41,487 nt of DNA, from the IMG/VR virus record IMGVR_UViG_3300022746_000007; one strand, 5' to 3'. This document shows positions 3,414-33,208 of this stretch, piece after piece (position 1 is the first letter of the stretch; every line of letters begins with the position of its first letter). The notes under the pieces are model-generated. The model made no database searches. It was given only the letters and a program-made list of their open reading frames with translations, and was not told the origin of the DNA. The position numbers and the translations under genes are program-made. Origin of the DNA: a virus.

Positions 3414-3662
3414 TTAAGGAGTTCCGTAAGCTGAAATATTAGCCAATGATGTTATGCTTCCACCGCTATCCATTGATGCAATTAATGTTCCACCATAATA
3501 AAAACAGAGTTTTCCAGCGACTTCTTCAATAGTAAAATTAGCTGTTGCCAAAATTACAGCATTAGTCGCATTTGGTACGGCACCAGTTACAGCAGAGCCA
3601 CTTAATTGTCCTGCTGAGTTTACATGATTTGCTAATTGGCTTAAATTAAATGCTTGTGTCAT
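3414..3662 (-). CDS. Small fibre-associated protein (82 aa)
   Basis: The N-terminus FNLSQLANHVNSAGQL is typical of phage fibre N-terminal modules; ATGA overlap with the J-like gene. Confidence 0.5.
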   Translation of the reverse strand: MTQAFNLSQLANHVNSAGQLSGSAVTGAVPNATNAVILATANFTIEEVAGKLCFYYGGTLIASMDSGGSITSLANISAYGTP

Positions 3663-6600
3663 ACTGCACCTGTCCTTGAGAAAGTTTGTTGTCCTAATAC
3701 ATTCAATGTACTTGTTGGTGAAGTCGCTAAAGTATAGCTTCCAGTTGTAACTGAATAATCTACTGTCTCTAGTTGCATAACACCATTATTATATAAGTTA
3801 AAGGCATTGGGGTCAAAACTAAAGTTATAATTTGATTGACCTATAACCGTATTAACATCCAAGTTTACTGGATTTCCGTTAGGCTGATTTAAGTTATTTT
3901 GAGACCATTGAATAATCTCTAAATCACCTGTTACTGCACTATTAAATGTAATTGTTTGACCAGTAATATTGTAATCAGATGCCATTACAGCAACACCGTT
4001 CAGGAACATAAATTCATATCCATTATTTAGGGTAAACCCTGATGCTGTATATGATGCCTGATTTGATAATGAAACCGCATTTCTTGTAAATGAATTATAT
4101 GTCGCAAAAGTAGAAGAATTAATTGATTTCATGCTAATGATAGTAATAATATCCCCAGCAGTTCTTCCTGTTCCAAATGTTACATTACCTGAATTGTCTG
4201 TATATTCACTAGGGTTTAGTATTAATCCATTTTCAAATACAAGACAGTTTCCAGTAACATAACCAGCACCACGACTAACTGAAAATACAGTTTGACCTGA
4301 CGATGCTGAATATGCTGTCATAGAATAATAAAAACTATCTGGAGCAGCAATACCAACAATACGACCATAAATATCTGCTGTAATAGTGCCTGCCACAAAT
4401 GTTTTCTGATATACACCAGTACCAAAATCCAATAACTGAGCCAATGAAGCAATAATCTGACCTTGATTATCATTAGTAATAGCAATTTCACCAGTTCCTA
4501 CAGTAGTAGTTCCTGTCTGAATTAATTGTCCAGTACGCTGTGATAAATCAATAATATTTGTACCAGTTGGCAATCCATTCCAAATAGATATGTCATAGTT
4601 AATTGCATCAATTGGTACATATCTACCAGAACCAGCAGCTTGCGATATTCCACCAACACCATAACTAATTGCATTAGAACCACGAGTGCAATATAACAAA
4701 TAGTTTGAAGAACCAAATGTTGCTGGATACCAAACATAATCTGAGGGATTTGAACTAGGTACTGTAGTGGTTTGATTAGAAATACCAAAATATGTTTTGC
4801 CTGCTGGACTAAAGTCAAATCCTGCTCCAGTATTACTTGTTCCATAAGCGACAGCTAAATATCTTTCAGGATACCTAAATGTCATTGGTCTCCATTGGAA
4901 TAATGTACTTGGTGGGCTATAAATAGAAGAGCCAAGGCTATTTACCATTCTACTAAAGAAGTACCAATTGCCAGCAGGAATGTCTGTTAAATAAATTAAT
5001 GGTAATGATGTATTAATATCATAAGGATTACCATTAGCTTGTATTTCTGTAGTACCTGCAAATAACATTTGGTCTGATGTTGGCGATGCGTATGCTGAAT
5101 ACCATAATTCTGCATATTGTGTAATTCCAGAAGAACTTGATGTTATTCTTACAGAAAATGTTGGGGTAGCAGCTACAGGATATTGTGAAATTACAGCAGG
5201 AGATGTAAGAGTACCGAAAAATGTTGGGTCTCCAAGACCAGTATTAGGTACAGTCGCAAACTGTGTAATTGGAGCATCATTGTATACTGATGGGTTATAT
5301 TCCATCAATGTTAATGAGACTGTAACAATTCCATTATTATCAATATTTTGGACACACTTACCAATTCTAAATAATTTATTTACCCAGCCATAATTAGAAT
5401 TTGTTAATGTAACCACATCTCCAGCTTCTAATTGAAGACCACTAAAATCTACTTGAACTTGAACCTGTAAATCTTCTCTACATGATTTCAAGAATCTTGT
5501 TGCTAAATATTGCGCTCTTACATCATTATTTACTAATGGTAAATTAATAGTCTGTTTATTTACAGGCTCATTAGGATAAAGCAATGATGGTGCTATTTCT
5601 GCCAAATCAAATATTGCTGTATTGAAAGCGTCTTGTTGAGATTTATCTGGGAACTGTACTTCAGCAATATTATATGAAGCTGCAATATCCAATGGTGTAA
5701 TTTGAATAGCGGAAACAATATTGCTATCATTTAATGCTAAAGCTACAGAATAACTTGGGGTTTGAACAATAGTACCCCATTTACCTGTTATCTCATTGTA
5801 TTTAATTAAACAATCACAACAAGAAGCCATATCTTGTAAGTTATCCATCACAATTCTAGATGTATCAATTACACCATCGAATTTAAATCTAGGAATAGTA
5901 CCAGTACCACCAGTATTAGGAGTATAGTAAAAAGTTTGATTACTATAAGATGTTAAATCGGCAAGACTGGCTGTATCAATTTGAGATGTTGGGATAGCAC
6001 AACCATATATAGTATTTGTTAAATAATCATAAATAACATCACCAGTATTTGTTCTAGTATTTATAATTTGAAATCTAGTTTGTTGTAATGCTGAAATACT
6101 TGCTTTTTGGCTGTATGTCAAATGAACAATTGCAAAAACACAATTACTCATTAATTTATTAGAATCCCATGTATATGTTAATCCAGCACTCTGCATAACA
6201 TCTATGGCTGACAATGTTGAATTTACAGGATTATTAGAGCCATTGTTATAAAGGAATATTTGAATCTTACCTGCTACAGTTGTATCAACTACACCAGTAG
6301 ATTCATCAGTTAATGATGCAACAGTATATCCATCTGTATCAAAGGCAACCTTTTTACCACTATAGTAAATATCGCCAAATGAAATAGTATCTGACCCAGT
6401 ACCAGTAACTTCACATAAAGCAAGAACATAATACATTTCTTGATTATTCTGTGAAATACTAAGGTCAATACCTGTGCCACCGACATAAGCAGTACCATAA
6501 ACAATAGGTAATTTGTTATTAGTTGCTGGAGCTAATTGCTGTCTATTTCCTAAATTAGCAGACATTCCAGATGGGTCAAATGTTTGTGGACTAAAGAAAG

Positions 6601-6796
6601 CTTTAGAAATAATGGTAGATGCCACCATATTGATAGCAAAAGCTACCGCAGTTCCCCAAATAGTTAAAGTACCACCTGAAACAAGTATCCCACCGATAAC
6701 TTCAGCAGCAATAATAGAACCAATAGCAAATGCAGATGTTGTAAAAGTTATCAGGCTTAAAAAAGCAAATATAAACTTAAACATTACTGCACCCAA
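3659..6796 (-). CDS. Tail tip / host-specificity protein (lambda gpJ-like central fibre), 1045 aa, with a hydrophobic Gly-rich N-terminal segment
   Basis: Largest tail ORF downstream of the tape measure and tip genes. NRQQLAPATNNKLPIVYGTAYVGG resembles the conserved P-V-V-Y-G motif near the start of gpJ-type proteins. The first ~70 aa are hydrophobic. Confidence 0.6.
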   Translation of the reverse strand: MGAVMFKFIFAFLSLITFTTSAFAIGSIIAAEVIGGILVSGGTLTIWGTAVAFAINMVASTIISKAFFSPQTFDPSGMSANLGNRQQLAPATNNKLPIVYGTAYVGGTGIDLSISQNNQEMYYVLALCEVTGTGSDTISFGDIYYSGKKVAFDTDGYTVASLTDESTGVVDTTVAGKIQIFLYNNGSNNPVNSTLSAIDVMQSAGLTYTWDSNKLMSNCVFAIVHLTYSQKASISALQQTRFQIINTRTNTGDVIYDYLTNTIYGCAIPTSQIDTASLADLTSYSNQTFYYTPNTGGTGTIPRFKFDGVIDTSRIVMDNLQDMASCCDCLIKYNEITGKWGTIVQTPSYSVALALNDSNIVSAIQITPLDIAASYNIAEVQFPDKSQQDAFNTAIFDLAEIAPSLLYPNEPVNKQTINLPLVNNDVRAQYLATRFLKSCREDLQVQVQVDFSGLQLEAGDVVTLTNSNYGWVNKLFRIGKCVQNIDNNGIVTVSLTLMEYNPSVYNDAPITQFATVPNTGLGDPTFFGTLTSPAVISQYPVAATPTFSVRITSSSSGITQYAELWYSAYASPTSDQMLFAGTTEIQANGNPYDINTSLPLIYLTDIPAGNWYFFSRMVNSLGSSIYSPPSTLFQWRPMTFRYPERYLAVAYGTSNTGAGFDFSPAGKTYFGISNQTTTVPSSNPSDYVWYPATFGSSNYLLYCTRGSNAISYGVGGISQAAGSGRYVPIDAINYDISIWNGLPTGTNIIDLSQRTGQLIQTGTTTVGTGEIAITNDNQGQIIASLAQLLDFGTGVYQKTFVAGTITADIYGRIVGIAAPDSFYYSMTAYSASSGQTVFSVSRGAGYVTGNCLVFENGLILNPSEYTDNSGNVTFGTGRTAGDIITIISMKSINSSTFATYNSFTRNAVSLSNQASYTASGFTLNNGYEFMFLNGVAVMASDYNITGQTITFNSAVTGDLEIIQWSQNNLNQPNGNPVNLDVNTVIGQSNYNFSFDPNAFNLYNNGVMQLETVDYSVTTGSYTLATSPTSTLNVLGQQTFSRTGAV

Positions 6797-15107: not shown

Positions 15108-16487
15108 TTAAACTTCGCCAGTAAACTCTAGTGTTACACCAGCTTGTACATCGTATACCAATGTGTTCAAACGACCACGGATGTAGAATGTCAAGTAGCC
15201 CAATTTTGTGATTGGAGTAGTTGTCAAAGTAGCCATCATACGGTCATAGATACGGAACAAGCGTGTCTTGCTACCGATAACACCGAAACGAACACGGTCA
15301 CCAGCAGAGAATGTTGGTGCATACCACTCTTCGTAAACATCGATACCTAAGAACTTACCTACATAAGCTGGCATACCAGCAGCAGGAGCGTTGTTTTGTA
15401 ACAATGTTTCTGTGAACAATGGGCGACCAAACGCATCAACCAAGCTACGAACTTGTTGAAGAGCTTGTGAGCTAAGAACCCAGCAAAGGTCATTACGATA
15501 AACAGGGCGTAATGCGTAGATAGCAGAGATGAACTTCTGATAAGTAGCGTTAGCACCAGTTAAAGTCTTAGGCGTACCTGCTGCTGTATTAGGGTCTTGA
15601 ACTTGACCACCAGCCAATGCTGTTTCTAATGTTGCACCAGCAAAGTCAATACGCTTCAACTGGATAGCACCAGTACCAGAATCGATAGATGCTGAAGTAC
15701 CAGATGGAGTAGCTGTCAAGTTGAACAAGCCATTGATGTTACCGTTAGAGCCAGAACCAGTACCGTCACCATTAGCCAAACCAATAGCTACAGTTTGAGC
15801 AGCAGCCATGTACAAGTCTTCGCTGAATGTTGATAACAATGTACCGTTGTCGCTTAGTACATCTTCACCAATCCAGTTTGTACCTTCGTAACGCTTGAAG
15901 TTTACTGTACGCTCAACGATTGCTTGGTCACCCACATTGGCTGGCTGGTTATAACCCCAACCGATACCTTGGTTAGCGTAACCGCTTGTATCTGAACTAC
16001 CTACTAATGTAGGAACTACCAAGTTTGCTGAACCAACAACTTGATTCAAGAAAGCTTGACGGATACCTGAAGGCTGACGCATATAAGCGAAAGTTGGGTC
16101 TACAGGGCGTGGAGAACCTTGGTCTAAACCAGAGCCAACCAAACCAGTAGACTTGTTGAACAATTTAATGCTCATTTCAGTCTCTTTACCTGTCTCTTTA
16201 GCTTGTTTAGCTAATTCAACAATCTCTTGACCCATCTTTTCAAAGAAAGGAGCTTCTGGCTGTGCAGATTTACCTGCTTCGATGTCCTTACGGTTCTTCT
16301 CGATATACTCTTCTAGAGCAACCATCTTAGAACGCAAAGTACCGATTTCTTCAGTCTTAGCAAATTCTTTTAAAGATTCTTCAACAGTAGCAAGTACATC
16401 GCCTTTAACAGACTTTGATACTTCTTTTACCGCTTCTTCGGCAGCAGCTTTTACGCCTGCCAATACTTCTTGTTTTAAATCAGACAT
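15108..16487 (-). CDS. Major capsid protein, HK97 fold, with an N-terminal delta (scaffold) domain
   Basis: 459 aa directly after the prohead protease. The first ~110 aa are a coiled-coil-like Lys/Glu/Ala segment, and the remainder looks like typical capsid protein sequence. Confidence 0.8.
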   Translation of the reverse strand: MSDLKQEVLAGVKAAAEEAVKEVSKSVKGDVLATVEESLKEFAKTEEIGTLRSKMVALEEYIEKNRKDIEAGKSAQPEAPFFEKMGQEIVELAKQAKETGKETEMSIKLFNKSTGLVGSGLDQGSPRPVDPTFAYMRQPSGIRQAFLNQVVGSANLVVPTLVGSSDTSGYANQGIGWGYNQPANVGDQAIVERTVNFKRYEGTNWIGEDVLSDNGTLLSTFSEDLYMAAAQTVAIGLANGDGTGSGSNGNINGLFNLTATPSGTSASIDSGTGAIQLKRIDFAGATLETALAGGQVQDPNTAAGTPKTLTGANATYQKFISAIYALRPVYRNDLCWVLSSQALQQVRSLVDAFGRPLFTETLLQNNAPAAGMPAYVGKFLGIDVYEEWYAPTFSAGDRVRFGVIGSKTRLFRIYDRMMATLTTTPITKLGYLTFYIRGRLNTLVYDVQAGVTLEFTGEV

Positions 16488-17294: not shown

Positions 17295-18634
17295 GATGTT
17301 TTGCCTTGTGTATCAGTTGATTGGGCTGGATTAGTTGGCTCTCCATCTTGACCTTTTACTGGAGCTTTACCACTAATAAGTTCTTTGCCTTTACCATCTG
17401 GAAGTGGAGCATAATTCATGTGCGCCCTAACTTCGTCAATAGTAAATGCACCTGTATTCGATAATAATTGGATAAAGTTAGCTTGAGATAACAAGTCACC
17501 CTTAAGGTAAGCTTCATCATCAAACTTTACTTTCAATACATCACGCTTATCTGCTGGGATAAGGATGTCTGTCAATGTAGCTTCGATGTTAGAAACGATA
17601 GGGTTCAGAGTATCTCTGTACCATCCAGCATTATTAGCAACTACATTGTTAAAACGAGCATTAGCTTCTGAGCCAACTTTAGATGGTGGAACACCAAATG
17701 AAGCTGCAATCTCAGTAATTAATTGTTTGCGGAAAGCCAACAAATCAGCAGTCTGAGGATTAGAAAGCATCTCAGTCATGATGATGTCAGCATCTTTATC
17801 ACCAGTTACGAAAATACCACCAGCTTGAGTGTTGGTGTTATTAGGGTCTAGAGTAAAGTTTCTCTTCAAATCTGCTAAGAAATTATCTTTTTCTTTAGCA
17901 TCTGTGAAGGCATTAAGCATTGGTGACTTATAAACACCAGAAATCCTTGCACCATTAGCAAATGTTCTAAGGGCAAAATTGTCTGCCTGAATTAATAAGC
18001 GAATTTTGTCAGCATTGCGTAAGATTAGAGATTCACCAGTTAAACCATCAATCTCAACATCACGAACTTGGAACATTTCGCTTGGAGCAAATGCGTTATA
18101 TCCACTCTCACCGATAAAGTCATAACGAACTAACCGAGTACGACCATCCATCGTTTCGGTAATCGGTCTCATACGATATGGATTCAACAATGTCATTCTT
18201 GGTACTAAACCATCACGATTCGGTGCGCCAATAAATGCGTTACCCCATGCTCTAAGCACGAATACCATATTATAGATGAATGTATATGTATTCTGACGCT
18301 CATTCGGATTCTTCAATCGTTCCAATGCGATATTCGCAATGTTCTTATTGATAGTACCTTGAGGTCTGATGAATTTCTCTTCTGCTTCATCCCATTGATA
18401 AATGGAAATAGGTAATTGAGCAATCGCTTTAGATGTCGCATCTAAGCAAGCAAAGACTGTACCGTTGTTAAGTGCATCCCAAACGATGTCAATTTGCGCT
18501 CCATTAGGAGTTGTAGTGCTAGTTGGAACATATCCATACCAGTTAAAGCCATTTGGTGCGTAGTCCGCAAAAAAGCGACCACTACCAGACATCAAATTCT
18601 TAACTCGGTCAATAATCTTCAAGCTATCCCCCAA
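17291..18634 (-). CDS. Portal protein (447 aa)
   Basis: Size and position immediately after the large terminase; overlapping stop/start with the protease gene. Confidence 0.75.
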   Translation of the reverse strand: MGDSLKIIDRVKNLMSGSGRFFADYAPNGFNWYGYVPTSTTTPNGAQIDIVWDALNNGTVFACLDATSKAIAQLPISIYQWDEAEEKFIRPQGTINKNIANIALERLKNPNERQNTYTFIYNMVFVLRAWGNAFIGAPNRDGLVPRMTLLNPYRMRPITETMDGRTRLVRYDFIGESGYNAFAPSEMFQVRDVEIDGLTGESLILRNADKIRLLIQADNFALRTFANGARISGVYKSPMLNAFTDAKEKDNFLADLKRNFTLDPNNTNTQAGGIFVTGDKDADIIMTEMLSNPQTADLLAFRKQLITEIAASFGVPPSKVGSEANARFNNVVANNAGWYRDTLNPIVSNIEATLTDILIPADKRDVLKVKFDDEAYLKGDLLSQANFIQLLSNTGAFTIDEVRAHMNYAPLPDGKGKELISGKAPVKGQDGEPTNPAQSTDTQGKTS

Positions 18635-20310
18635 TACATTTGTCGTTGTTGCGGATTCTCAATATCTAGCGAACACGCCATTACCATTGTCATTACCGCA
18701 TCTATTTTATTTGGAGAAGAAGGACTCTCCTTTTGTGGATATAAATTTCCTTTATTATCAGGTCTAATGTGAGCATTTGCAACCTGCCATGACATAAAAG
18801 ATGACTTATTATGTATTATTTTACCCTCATTTAGCAATCTTTCAAAGTCCATTGCTGCTGGATTGATTACCATACCATTTTGATTGATAGGCTCAAGGGT
18901 CATTGTTAAGTCTTGTGCTAGTTTAGCTGTAAGCATTGTAGCAGACCATCTATCGAATCCAATAACCTTTGGTCTATATTGAGCGTTCCACTCTTTAATC
19001 TTGTCTTCAATAATATAAGGGTCTACGATTTCCCCTTCGACTAAAGTCAATACACCTTCTTCGATACCACGACCATACTTTACCTTATAGACAGTAGGTA
19101 AGGCATCAAATGTAGCCCTTGGTATATAGCATTGATGTATAACTGAGCGACTTCCATCAGGATGCCTAAACCACATCGCTAGAGCAGTTAAGTCTTGAGA
19201 GCGAGATAAGTCAAATGTCATGAAGCAGTCTTCTGAAATAGGAACATTATCTACAGCACTAGCATCCCATTTCGTCACATCAAGCCAGCTTTCAGCAGAA
19301 CCTAAGTATACATTCAGGTTTTTAACCATAAATGAGTTCTTCTTGATAGTAGATTTCCTTGCTTCTAGGCAAGTCTCCATCATTTTGTCTTCTCGGACAG
19401 TAATCCCCAAATTGGGATTAGCCTTAATCCATAGCTTAGGGTCATCCCAGTTCTTATAGTCTTCAGGGTCTAGTGTATAAATCAGACCAAATGTTCTATC
19501 CGAGCCACTATTACGCAAGTCATTAATATATGGCTCTTCAAACATTTCAAAGAATGGATTAACAGTATCTTGTGCGGTAGTCAAAAGAATGTTTAGTACA
19601 TTCGATGATGCAAGCTGTCCAGATGTCAATACGCTGAATACATTTGGGTCTTTAATAGCAGCAGCTTCGTCAAAAGCTACCACATCGGGCTTGAATCCGT
19701 CTTGTGTATTTGAATCTTTACCCAATGGCTTAAATGTTTTCCAGTCATCGACAATTTCGATAGAACGATTCTTTAACTTAAACATCTTACGCAGTTCTCT
19801 ATCAGACTGCATAATCATACGCTTACAGAACTGGTGAAGAATATTAGCTTGGTCTTCTTTGGTAGCAGCACAAAACGCCTGAAGACCTTTATCTCCTAGG
19901 ATGTATGCCAATAAAACCATTCCAGCCACAAGGTTAGTCTTGCCATTCTTACGACCCACTTTAAGCAAAGCATTATTGTATCTACGCTCTTTCTTATTCT
20001 CTCTACTTACCCAGCCAAAGATGGCAGCTACAAAGAACTGTTGCCAAGGAGTTAGATAGAATGGTTCACCAGCCCATTTATCCTCAGTTAGTCTTAAGCA
20101 TCTGCTAAAAAACTGAATAGCTCGGTCTGCCCTTTTTCTGCAAAAGAACCATCTATATGTATCATCGCTATCTGCCTTCTCTAATTCCTTAACAAAGGCT
20201 TCGCATTGAAGTCGGACATATTCATTGGATAATATCTTCCCCGATACAATATCTTCGCAATACTGTATAGCGGTGATATACGATTGTTTGGAGTGTTCAG
20301 TCTTCGTCAT
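18619..20310 (-). CDS. terL: Terminase large subunit (Terminase_1-type)
   Basis: 563 aa; Walker A-like VGRKNGKTNLVAG; VVAFDEAA Walker B-like; follows the small terminase gene. Confidence 0.85.
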   Translation of the reverse strand: MTKTEHSKQSYITAIQYCEDIVSGKILSNEYVRLQCEAFVKELEKADSDDTYRWFFCRKRADRAIQFFSRCLRLTEDKWAGEPFYLTPWQQFFVAAIFGWVSRENKKERRYNNALLKVGRKNGKTNLVAGMVLLAYILGDKGLQAFCAATKEDQANILHQFCKRMIMQSDRELRKMFKLKNRSIEIVDDWKTFKPLGKDSNTQDGFKPDVVAFDEAAAIKDPNVFSVLTSGQLASSNVLNILLTTAQDTVNPFFEMFEEPYINDLRNSGSDRTFGLIYTLDPEDYKNWDDPKLWIKANPNLGITVREDKMMETCLEARKSTIKKNSFMVKNLNVYLGSAESWLDVTKWDASAVDNVPISEDCFMTFDLSRSQDLTALAMWFRHPDGSRSVIHQCYIPRATFDALPTVYKVKYGRGIEEGVLTLVEGEIVDPYIIEDKIKEWNAQYRPKVIGFDRWSATMLTAKLAQDLTMTLEPINQNGMVINPAAMDFERLLNEGKIIHNKSSFMSWQVANAHIRPDNKGNLYPQKESPSSPNKIDAVMTMVMACSLDIENPQQRQMYWGIA

Positions 20311-25136: not shown

Positions 25137-25514
25137 TTACTTCAATCTCTCTAATTTGTAGATTGTTCTAGTAATCAAAGCCATCATCTCATCGATAATG
25201 TTCTGCAAGTAAGAATCTTGTGGCAATTCTTTTCTAGTAGTCTCTACATATTTCTTCAATGTAATCATGTATTCCAATGGTGAGCCAGCAATGATGATTA
25301 CAGATGTAGGATATTCCTCAATGAACTCTAACCCACCAAAATAAGATTCAGCGTAGCTGTCTACAATATCACCGATTTCGCTATAGAACTCTTCTAGTGC
25401 TTTGTGCTGTGAGAATGAGCCAGTCTTTAGATGAGCAAGGTGAGCATTAGTCACGCTATGCAGCATTGTTACGATGAATTTACCAGCGAGGGGGTATGCC
25501 ATTATTTTCTCCAA
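25137..25514 (-). CDS. Dps/ferritin-like mini-protein (125 aa)
   Basis: AHLAHLKTGSFSQHKALEEFYSEIGDIVDSYAE reproduces the Dps ferroxidase ligand spacing H-x12-H-x14-D-x3-E (compare Listeria Dps H31/H43/D58/E62) and the LYSEFG..MDEVAE-like helix. Confidence 0.55.
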   Translation of the reverse strand: MEKIMAYPLAGKFIVTMLHSVTNAHLAHLKTGSFSQHKALEEFYSEIGDIVDSYAESYFGGLEFIEEYPTSVIIIAGSPLEYMITLKKYVETTRKELPQDSYLQNIIDEMMALITRTIYKLERLK

Positions 25515-25536: not shown

Positions 25537-25878
25537 TCATATTACCTCAACTTCGATGTATCCACCAATGTTATTAGCTACTTCGATGACAATACGCTTA
25601 AAGCATTTGTCATTTACCCCTAAAGCATCAGCCATACCATCTAATCCAGACTTGATAGATGCCAGCATATTGTCTAAGTCCATGTGTCTATTGTTGGGTT
25701 TGTAAAAGGTAATCTGCAATGCTTTGTAATCATCTCTGACTGGGTAATCAACCATTGCTGCCTTGGTATGGTAATAGCACTCTAGTCTGTATCGTTTCTT
25801 GAACTGAGCTTTGTTTAGGTAATGCTTAGAAGAGTTAGGACTAAGTTCTTTAGGATACCAAGGGAATGTAATAATCAT
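25537..25878 (-). CDS. rusA: RusA-family Holliday junction resolvase
   Basis: 113 aa; HMDLDNMLASIKSGLDGMADALGVNDKCF matches the RusA D.DN..K...D......DD motif. Confidence 0.7.
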   Translation of the reverse strand: MIITFPWYPKELSPNSSKHYLNKAQFKKRYRLECYYHTKAAMVDYPVRDDYKALQITFYKPNNRHMDLDNMLASIKSGLDGMADALGVNDKCFKRIVIEVANNIGGYIEVEVI

Positions 25879-25930
25879 TTATATACCATTAATCATTCTT
25901 TATATTAATTAATATACTATATATTAACTA

Positions 25931-26160
25931 CTATTCCCCTATCTGCTCTTTCGGTGAACGAACCTAGCCTACCTAGATTCGCCTTAATCTGCTCCATCGG
26001 AGTTACAGAACCCGTCAGTCTTGCGTTGAATCGGCACTAACTTCGCCACCGATATGTGTCCTGTCACATCAACTACCCCCAGTAGGACTATTCGCTTTAG
26101 CACCCTGATATGTCGTTAGAGCCTCGATGCTAAACCTAACTGGATGTGGCACAAATAAAA
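25931..26160 (-). ncRNA. GC-rich non-coding island: candidate structured RNA or leader upstream of rusA (orientation tentative)
   Basis: By hand count about 50% G+C over 25941-26150 against about 12% in the adjacent 50 nt. Stops in all plus frames. C exceeds G on the plus strand (62 vs 42), so the minus-strand transcript is G-rich. Local stems: tcggtg/caccga (25951-56 / 26047-52), atgtg...cacat (26053-57 / 26065-69), ccagtagg/cctaactgg (26079-86 / 26135-43). Confidence 0.3.
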
Positions 26161-26382
26161 AAAGACTACTAAAATCTGTCATTTCTATTGGCTTAACACT
26201 ATGTAAATACTCTGACCTATACTTACATAGTGCGAAATAACAGACTTCAATAGTCTTCGCTGTCAGATTATTACACCTGAACGCCACATTCAGTAATTGC
26301 ATTGTAGGACAATATTTATAGAAATACAAGCTTTTCGTACAAATACTTGCTATTGTCATAATTATCGTTAAAAATCATATAT

Positions 26383-31419: not shown

Positions 31420-31755
31420 ATGACATTCGATACATCAATTGAACTATTAGAGGATTCTGCATTTCATGGATTCGATGTTGAAGAAGCCTATGAAAATGAA
31501 GTAGCTGAGAATAAGAGATTGAATGAACTTGTAGATGCTTTGACCTGCTCTGATTCTGATAAAGAAATTGTTAGATTAAACAATCAGGTTAAAGCTCTTG
31601 AGGGAAGACTATCTCAAGCTTTAACTACTGAAGCGGAAGCTATTAAACAGGTAAAGAGTAATAACAAACTATTAACCAATATCAAAAAGTTACTTGCTGT
31701 ACAAAACAATACAGAAATTCTACCTACATTAAAACATGGATATAAACCTTCGTGA
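31420..31755 (+). CDS. Hypothetical coiled-coil protein (111 aa)
   Basis: ORF between ssb and the helicase gene. Confidence 0.5.
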   Translation: MTFDTSIELLEDSAFHGFDVEEAYENEVAENKRLNELVDALTCSDSDKEIVRLNNQVKALEGRLSQALTTEAEAIKQVKSNNKLLTNIKKLLAVQNNTEILPTLKHGYKPS

Positions 31756-33208
31756 TTATCAGTTAGATGCCATTGAATCTTTAAGAGATGGCATCAGAAT
31801 GGGTATCAAGAATCAGGTTTTATCTGCTCCTACTGGGTCAGGTAAAACTGTTCTTGCTTCCCATTTAACTGATGAATCGTATAAAAAAGGAAAGAGCGTT
31901 CTCTTTGTCGTTGATAGAGTGAATCTTATCAATCAGACTAGCGAAACATTTGATAGGTATGGTATTCCTCATGGAGTGATTCAGGCTCAACATTGGAGAT
32001 ATAGACCTTGGGAAAAAGTGCAAGTTGCATCTGCTCAGACCTTGGCTAGAAGAAAATGGGAACTGCCAGATTTACTTATTGTTGATGAGTGCCATACTTT
32101 ATTGAAAGTTATCACTAATGCTATCGATAAGCGAGAAACTATAACTATAGGACTAAGTGCTACACCTTTTACCAAAGGATTAGGAAAACATTATGATGCT
32201 GTTAAATCGGTTACGACAACAAATAAACTCATATCAGAAGGGTTTTTATCCCCATTCGAAATTTATGCAGCATCCGAACCTAATATGGATGGTGCTAAAG
32301 TGGTCGCTGGGGAATGGACTGACAACGATGCTGCTGACCGTAGCATGGCTATTGTTGGCGATTGTGTTGTTGAGTATCTTAAGCATGGCAATAATAAGAA
32401 GTTTATTGCTTTCGGCTGCAATGTTCTTCATTGCGAAGCGTTAAAGGCTCAATTTGAATCGGCAGGTATTCCATGCGAGTTATACACATACAAGGATGGC
32501 AATGAAAAGAAAGACGATTTGGTTAAAGAATTTAAGAAGCCTGATTCTGCTATTCGTGGTCTTATTTCTGTGTCTGCTTTGGCAAAAGGTTTTGATGTTC
32601 CCGATGTTGGTGTAGTTATTATGGCTAGACCTTTGCGTTCAAGTCTTTCAGAACACCTACAAATTTTAGGAAGAGGATTGCGTATTGCCGATGGAAAAGA
32701 GAAATGTATTGTCCTAGACCACTCAGGAAACTGTGCAAGGTTCTGGGAAGATATGCAAGAGTTCCTTGAGCATGGAGTATTACATCTATGCGATGGAAAG
32801 CCAAAAGAAAAGCCAGAAAAGAAAGAGAAATCTGATGACAAGAAACCGAAAAAATGCCCTAGTTGCTTTCATTTGCATAGTCCTGCTTTGGTCTGTCCCA
32901 ATTGTGGCTTTATTTATAAAGTAAAGTCTGACATTACACATGAAGCAGGTGAATTACACAAGATAAATAGTTCTGTATCGCAGAACAATACTTTGTTTGA
33001 AGAGTTGGCTCATTATGCAAAAGTCAAACAAGGCAAGAATGATACAGATGCTCACAAATATGCTCAGGCTATGTATAAAAACATAACTGGCGTATGGTCT
33101 CCAAAAAGAATTACGGAGATTACTTTAGTACCACCAACGCAAGAAACATTAAATAAAATAAAACATCAAAACATACGATATGCCAAAGGCAGAAAGAAAT
33201 ACAAATGA
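31736..33208 (+). CDS. SF2 DEAD/DEAH-box helicase with a C-terminal zinc ribbon (490 aa)
   Basis: Motif I APTGSGKT, motif II VDECH, motif III SATP, and later CPSCFHLHSPALVCPNCG. Confidence 0.8.
   Translation: MDINLRDYQLDAIESLRDGIRMGIKNQVLSAPTGSGKTVLASHLTDESYKKGKSVLFVVDRVNLINQTSETFDRYGIPHGVIQAQHWRYRPWEKVQVASAQTLARRKWELPDLLIVDECHTLLKVITNAIDKRETITIGLSATPFTKGLGKHYDAVKSVTTTNKLISEGFLSPFEIYAASEPNMDGAKVVAGEWTDNDAADRSMAIVGDCVVEYLKHGNNKKFIAFGCNVLHCEALKAQFESAGIPCELYTYKDGNEKKDDLVKEFKKPDSAIRGLISVSALAKGFDVPDVGVVIMARPLRSSLSEHLQILGRGLRIADGKEKCIVLDHSGNCARFWEDMQEFLEHGVLHLCDGKPKEKPEKKEKSDDKKPKKCPSCFHLHSPALVCPNCGFIYKVKSDITHEAGELHKINSSVSQNNTLFEELAHYAKVKQGKNDTDAHKYAQAMYKNITGVWSPKRITEITLVPPTQETLNKIKHQNIRYAKGRKKYK

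Follow-up and report, generated by a model that had tools for sequence, protein, structure and literature searches.

A long-form RF02932 RNA with a conserved 3' domain and a duplicated word upstream of a rusA-like gene in a low-GC freshwater siphophage

Results

A structured RNA gene of the RF02932 family

The GC-rich island between the rusA-like gene and its divergent neighbours is the gene for a structured RNA of about 195 nt, encoded on the minus strand from 26135 to 25941, and this RNA is a long-form member of the Rfam family RF02932 (Betaproteobacteria-1 RNA). The RF02932 match, at 26135-26010 on the minus strand, is the sole above-threshold match when the whole window, that is, the complete stretch of viral DNA analysed here (41,487 nt), is searched with cmscan. 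It covers model positions 1-120 of 120, and its score of 86.3 bits (E = 1e-14) lies above the gathering score of 49.4. The initial annotation, made by eye, had held that the island matches no known RNA; the cmscan that it had itself proposed as a check overturns this. Further Rfam families gave only chance matches at E values up to 10 (a snoRNA at 17.7 bits and a thermometer at 8.8 bits). A tRNA or tmRNA identity can be ruled out, as ARAGORN finds neither, in line with the earlier observation that no tRNA cloverleaf fits. RF02932 originates in a survey of 224 motifs, the main text of which is silent on this motif (PMC5737381). In Rfam its type is Gene; sRNA.

The family itself is thus already known, and the window RNA shares with it three hairpins and the invariant GGUGGCGAAG ... 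CGGGU. The Rfam model ends at CGGGU, whereas in the window and in 84 phage contigs the RNA extends for about another 70 nt, comprising the helices P4, P4a and P5 and a duplicated word, so that the catalogued model spans just about two thirds of the conserved RNA. Three pseudoknots described below (PK0-PK2) are absent from the printed structure line of the model, and the carrier is a low-GC freshwater siphophage rather than a betaproteobacterial chromosome. New here are how far the uncatalogued 3' domain extends and how it covaries in this subfamily, a rule for the duplicated word and two types of upstream architecture.

The sharpness of the island was correctly described at the outset. The G+C content of 25941-26150 is 49.5%, against 18-26% in the flanks (17.7% at 25879-25940 and 26% at 26151-26200) and 36.4% in the whole window, and the reported excess of C on the plus strand (62 C, 42 G) is reproduced. 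Stops, noted before in the plus frames, occur in all six frames of 25931-26160, with 3-7 in each. The only ORF listed there, at 26069-26359 on the minus strand (96 aa, ATG start), had already been doubted; it has no match in Pfam or PHROG and covers only part of the island. The locus is a clean low-GC example of the family with sharp boundaries.

Gene annotation identifies the window as a siphovirus-type phage genome, with a large terminase (18619-20310), a major head protein (15108-16487) and a J-like tail protein (3659-6796). The first gene after the RNA, co-directional with it, encodes a RusA-like Holliday-junction resolvase (25537..25878, minus strand; phrog_34 E = 3e-13, with a weak match to Pfam RusA), and the second a DUF5856/Dps-like protein (25137..25514, minus strand; PF19174 E = 1e-19, phrog_858 E = 1e-24). 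The RNA heads just these two genes, after which a convergent plus-strand block begins. On the other side of the island lies a divergent plus-strand pair, GNAT/metallophosphoesterase. The 504-bp intergenic region that had seemed empty can now be accounted for by a candidate promoter, a leader hairpin and the RNA gene.

Relatives and distribution

Relatives were sought with an invariant-core pattern, GGTGGCGAAGNNAGNGCC, which identified at least 119 viral-contig loci in IMG/VR. A covariance model, R1, was built from 54 of those contigs together with the window and has 227 positions. A search with R1 of the window, the first 98 loci and a single chromosomal locus gave 84 matches, and the RNA is present in 83 of the 98 viral loci searched (L001-L098). 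The window scores 169.8 bits over 25921-26148 (228 nt).

Outside viral contigs the RNA is rare. The core-pattern matches in bacterial genome contigs look like chance, and none of those listed passed a two-motif screen, a screen that itself missed some true viral members; five of the genomes that have these core-pattern matches, moreover, lack an RF02932 match. Among 156 genomes searched, from the order Burkholderiales and others, a single one carries RF02932 (one of 151 within the order). This copy, L240 (1385-1636, minus strand), on a Burkholderiales-order chromosome, is the only chromosomal one found; it scores 64.7 bits to RF02932 and carries a diverged P4/P5-like extension. In L240 the sequence that occurs twice is the P4 5' strand (CUUCAAG and CUUCAG), and both copies are complementary to one CUGAAG. 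A BLASTN search of 50,697 GenBank phage records with the region and with this chromosomal homologue gave no real match. The closest cultured relatives by TerL share only about 31% identity and belong to the Pseudomonas D3-like and the Ralstonia phages.

Core fold and covariation

The RNA folds into five hairpins tied together by three pseudoknots that are supported by covariation. We counted base pairs in a covariance-model alignment of 81 distinct sequences, and as controls slid the 3' partners by 1-3 columns and ran 500 shuffles. Standard pairs occupy 91.4% of cells compared with 31-45% in the slid controls, and the covariation score is 0.534 compared with 0.05-0.09. Changes on both sides are found in 41 of the 52 pairs, and not one of the 500 shuffles attains any of the observed measures. 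The covariation check suggested by the initial annotation thus comes out clearly in favour of the structured RNA that it had proposed, transcribed in the direction of rusA, as does the RF02932 match. The compensatory base-pair changes show that selection acts on the RNA.

The core, which corresponds to the RF02932 model (26010..26135, minus strand), is supported both by cmscan and by compensatory changes among these relatives. Its first hairpin, P1 (26135-26126/26104-26095), has double changes in 9 of 9 pairs, with 95% of cells paired, and P2 (26088-26084/26062-26058) has them in 5 of 6 pairs, with 87% of cells paired. In P3 (26041-26036/26019-26014) two of the six pairs show double changes and three others never vary; 99% of cells are paired. 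Three sets of contacts, all with compensatory changes, connect these hairpins: PK0 (26108-26105/26082-26079) pairs CAG of the P1 loop with CUG of the P2 loop, PK1 (26073-26069/26029-26025) pairs five P2-loop bases with the P3 loop, and PK2 (26053-26051/26032-26030) joins the P3 loop to three bases that precede GGUGG. About 45 nucleotides are invariant across the RNA, including CGGGU and, in the core, GGUGGCGAAG at 26050-26041. A fourth contact, between GGUGG and CCACC, is possible: it is paired in 90% of cells, but its 5' side never varies, and variation on one side only is consistent with the contact without proving it. Alternatively, GGU may pair with ACC as a nested helix and so close a three-way junction.

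Two of the helices first drawn by hand have a place in this fold, tttagc/gctaaa within P1 and tcggtg/caccga as the possible GGUGG/CCACC contact, while atgtg-N7-cacat and ccagtagg/cctaactgg fall outside the covariation-supported structure. The minimum free energy of the window RNA folded as a single sequence is no better than that of shuffles (z = -0.5 on either strand). A folding energy no better than shuffled controls had been named as grounds for doubting the RNA, and formally this result counts against it; it is, however, to be expected because the fold is pseudoknotted, and for such an RNA it is uninformative. Likewise, RNAalifold on a raw MAFFT alignment gave fragments only, because of pseudoknots and indels, and was replaced by the covariance-model alignment.

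A 3' domain with a duplicated word

Beyond the end of the Rfam model lies a 3' domain of about 70 nt (25941..26009, minus strand), conserved in the 84 R1 matches. After CGGGU it consists of P4 enclosing P4a, a UGAAGGC-type stretch, P5, CCACC and a short tail. P4 (26009-26006/25991-25988) and P5 (25981-25973/25967-25959) both show compensatory changes; P4a, the inner hairpin enclosed by P4, pairs CUCC with GGAG (26002-25999/25995-25992). In the window the conserved stretch reads UUAAGGC (25987-25981), and the short tail is preceded by CACC (25956-25953), which is CCACC in the family. A conserved motif, AGGUAGGCUAGG, extends from the 3' end of the P5 5' arm across the GUAGG loop to the beginning of the 3' arm.

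The most unusual feature of this domain is a word that is present in twin copies, in the window GAGCAGAU at 25994-25987 (X1) and 25948-25941 (X2). The sequence GAGCAGAT that had been seen twice on the minus strand is this pair, and the duplication is family-wide: nearly every member repeats, directly after CCACC, a word of 6-12 nt whose first copy comprises the P4a loop and the 3' half of P4a, often with a few more bases. The word differs widely among phages (for example AAAAGCAA, AAAGGCAAC, CCAAAGGAGGAA, AACGGGCAUGG, GGUAUCAU, UUCGGGGAA and UCCAGCAU). More than 20 variants occur. Within any one RNA the copies are alike, and their spacing is mostly 46-54 nt (range 44-64). The match score of X1 to X2 is 7.3 within an RNA and 4.3 between clades, with a Mann-Whitney p of 3e-37 that overstates independence, the sequences being related; the number of distinct word variants carries more weight. 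The first copy comes after CUCC and forms a hairpin with it, whereas the second comes after CACC, with which it cannot pair; X2 cannot self-fold because its CUCC partner has been replaced by CACC.

Strand exchange is the simplest reading of the twin word. The 3' domain is probably a two-state element in which the strand ending in CUCC pairs with either copy of the word: the conserved GGCUCC, together with the P4 5' strand, would take X1, giving the P4a hairpin, or X2 in the 3' tail, and the exchange would expose or hide that tail. This accounts for the duplication of the paired part but not for the copying of unpaired loop bases, and in some clades, for example that of L078, copy 2 offers just 3 bp. 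A word that is kept identical in a folded and an unfolded copy but differs between phages could guide mutational work on the role of the RNA.

Other origins and partners for the word were considered and rejected. Neither a third copy of the word, in the fetched loci or the window, nor its reverse complement, in the fetched loci, was found. In the window, two 8-mers complementary to GAGCAGAU lie on the plus strand at 31822-31829 and 32029-32036, inside an SF2 helicase gene (31736-33208); they have no convincing extended pairing as a trans target, and the count is within chance (5 matches compared with 1.6 expected, a number that 3 of 100 shuffles attain). An origin of the repeats by rolling-circle replication or template jumping was set aside, there being no reverse transcriptase among the annotated proteins and the spacing not being in frame, and a small ORF in the 3' domain is not conserved beyond the clade of the window.

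The 3' domain of the window is almost identical in four other phages (L097, L001, L048 and L098), whose 5' core (P1-P3) sequences differ. Sequence comparison suggests that the core and the 3' domain may be exchanged as modules.

Two upstream architectures

Upstream of the RNA in the window a candidate sigma-70 promoter can be read from the sequence at 26301..26329 on the minus strand, with a -35 element TTGTAT (26329-26324), a 17-nt spacer and a -10 element TACAAT (26306-26301), which would place the start of transcription near 26294. A consensus promoter scan did not pick it up, the -35 element being too weak. We infer that TTGTAT-N17-TACAAT may drive a unit consisting of the leader, the RNA, rusA and the Dps-like gene. 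Between this promoter and P1 is a leader hairpin followed by a U-run (26157..26258, minus strand). The hairpin is a 40-bp imperfect stem with arms at 26258-26219 and 26210-26161 and a 10-nt asymmetric bulge at 26195-26186, and the U7 run is at 26163-26157. Its minimum free energy is -66.5 kcal/mol (z = -10.2 compared with shuffles). Its form could suit either a conditional terminator or a processing stem of the RNase III type.

The relatives fall into two classes with respect to this region. In class A, which includes the window, a long hairpin and U-run stand just upstream of P1 (z = -3.2 to -15.4). The architecture of these hairpins is kept while their sequences are unrelated between relatives, and a -10-like TATAAT or GATATAGT is found at the equivalent place upstream of the leader hairpin. 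Class B relatives have no such hairpin and instead have a conserved promoter, TTGCAA-N16-18-TAnnAT, that ends about 7 nt before P1. With this placement transcription would begin right at P1. The class B -10 element takes the forms TAAGAT, TAGAAT and TAAACT, and the promoter sits inside the end of the upstream gene, within the 40 nt before P1; it is seen in L002, L012, L026, L042, L063, L072, L079, L084, L093, L096 and others.

Downstream spacer and neighbouring genes

The conserved RNA is separated from rusA by an AU-rich spacer (25879..25940, minus strand) of 62 nt, in which the RNA strand is free of C. No Shine-Dalgarno sequence can be recognised for rusA. No terminator is present in this spacer, and in 66 of 75 distinct loci there is no terminator-like site within 250 nt downstream of the RNA. 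As no terminator follows it, the RNA is presumably co-transcribed with rusA and the Dps-like gene, and the early proposal of a leader of rusA/dps would hold insofar as the RNA forms the leader part of that transcript.

The next genes are co-directional with the RNA in all resolvable loci. Of four loci in which the downstream genes seemed convergent, two were dismissed, L062 because a co-directional 1965-aa ORF runs past the ±6-kb span examined around the locus, and L040 because the ORF there is a shadow ORF; the other two, L045 and L100, were left out, although L100 lists co-directional ORFs. The identity of the downstream genes differs by phage and includes a replication initiator, a ParB-like protein, RusA, a C5 methylase and the 1965-aa protein. 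In the commonest layout a Cro-like gene is followed by the RNA and then by a replication initiator and a C5 methylase, with an exonuclease and SSB leftward. In L003 and L024 a RusA-like ORF precedes the RNA and a ParB-like gene and an ORF of about 500 aa follow it, a layout which implies that the RNA stands at the boundary of a module and has no fixed link to rusA. A universally conserved neighbour protein that might act as its partner was looked for and rejected, the commonest clusters occurring in at most 23 of 58 loci.

Discussion

Possible roles of the RNA

The reading that we tentatively prefer, while granting that it may well be wrong, is that the folded RNA is itself the product, excised from an AU-rich early transcript, and is not a switch for a particular downstream gene. 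Transcription would run from the promoter near 26300 through the leader with its 40-bp hairpin and U-run, and on into rusA and the Dps-like gene, and the RNA would be cut out of this transcript as a compact, nuclease-resistant module. The 5' cut would be made at the long leader stem by an RNase III-type activity and the 3' cut in the C-free AU spacer by an RNase E-type activity, and the free RNA would bind a conserved partner, be it a host machine or a small molecule. Consistent with this, the downstream genes differ between phages, the class B promoter would start transcription at P1, class A members have just upstream a long stem that is a possible processing site, the flanks are extremely AU-rich with a C-free spacer downstream, and Rfam types the family as an sRNA gene. 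Of what a stand-alone gene would have, class B relatives show a dedicated promoter at P1, and in the window a candidate lies 160 nt upstream; the RNA is not followed by a terminator. That 66 of 75 loci have none, and that the next genes are co-directional, would fit a cis-acting leader equally well. A more specific and much more speculative proposal, to which we give only a slight chance, is that the RNA is an early phage decoy or sponge whose knotted core captures a conserved host molecule, such as an immune signalling nucleotide or a defence or transcription protein, with the twin word as a strand-exchange switch that reports or gates binding. Were that so, it would be the RNA counterpart of the phage protein sponges against bacterial immunity.

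A cis-acting role of the kind played by the put RNAs at the head of an operon, in which the nascent RNA would bind RNA polymerase during transcription, or mark the transcript in another way, and thereby promote read-through or stability of the downstream genes, appears rather unlikely to us, but it is the most serious of the other explanations. The RNA is co-directional with the next genes and in most loci no terminator intervenes. Many relatives place it where nutR or putR would be, after a Cro-like gene and before replication genes, and others directly at a dedicated promoter, like putL (PMC9378689); the downstream genes are arbitrary, and the unpaired bases that never vary could make contact with a polymerase surface that is itself universally conserved. 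The antiterminator RNAs putL and putR of HK022, however, are about 70 nt long with two stems and lack pseudoknots (PMC9378689), whereas the RNA described here is three times larger, with 195 nt, five hairpins and three pseudoknots. In class A the strong hairpin and U-run come before the RNA, a position at which it cannot aid read-through, and in the window only two genes follow before the convergent block. What is common to both is a phage RNA after an early promoter or cro, a co-directional operon and no dedicated protein nearby (PMC9378689); the size and number of stems differ, the comparison is by description and not by sequence, and antitermination would be assigned here by analogy. A riboswitch, in which the pseudoknotted core would be the aptamer that recognises a metabolite or a signalling nucleotide while the 3' domain would serve as the expression platform, is improbable. 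The compact core with its many invariant unpaired bases, the competing partners in the 3' domain (X1 or X2; GGUGG or GGU with ACC) and the location in a 5' leader are what such an element would be expected to have, but no expression platform can be recognised: there is neither a terminator nor sequestration of a ribosome site, the rusA start is 62 nt past the conserved end, with AU-rich sequence that is not conserved in between, the genes downstream share no function, and no Rfam riboswitch class matches, even at E values up to 10.

Less probable again is a self-processing RNA, in which a ribozyme core would act at both identical words, guided internally by the conserved GGCUCC strand first to X1 and next to X2, so as to release a piece of 46-54 nt or to set the 5' end of the downstream mRNA. 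Size and knotting resemble those of small ribozymes, for example of the lariat-capping type, and the proposal would make sense of two phage-specific identical words that each follow CNCC at a near-constant spacing of 44-64 nt, and of one conserved strand able to pair with either. Yet cmscan reveals nothing similar among the Rfam ribozyme families, and pairing of the guide strand with copy 2 is weak in several clades. That the island is protein-coding, or else a non-functional remnant of host-derived or attP-like DNA as the initial annotation had allowed, we regard as next to negligible. An ATG-initiated ORF does overlap part of it, but this ORF, which belongs to no protein family, spans only part of the conserved element and has its 5' part in the leader, the sequence of which is not conserved among relatives, and the island is interrupted by stops in every frame. 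Nothing speaks for a remnant either, the substitutions being compensatory in RNA helices and the family occurring in one bacterial genome among those searched; and the same evidence of selection on the RNA leaves nothing in favour of the suggested protein-binding locus in the DNA. What probability remains belongs to readings beyond these five.

Comparison with other phage RNAs

Like the window RNA, the ROOL and GOLLD RNAs are ornate orphans supported by covariation and largely borne by phages or prophages (PMC5737381; bioRxiv 10.1101/2024.12.08.627333). They are several hundred nucleotides long, usually lie near tRNAs and form multimeric cages (PMC5737381; bioRxiv 10.1101/2024.12.08.627333); they are thus far larger, and cmscan finds no sequence or model similarity to them. 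RF02932 is an orphan that ranks among the most intricately folded small RNAs that phages carry. Short phage-specific words that are identical at two places in one transcript, as here, are also a feature of the C4 antisense RNA of phages P1 and P7, where loops of the antisense RNA are complementary to the repeated words, which are its targets. In the RNA described here, by contrast, the varying words have no varying complement, and their sole pairing partner is the nearly invariant GGCUCC strand.
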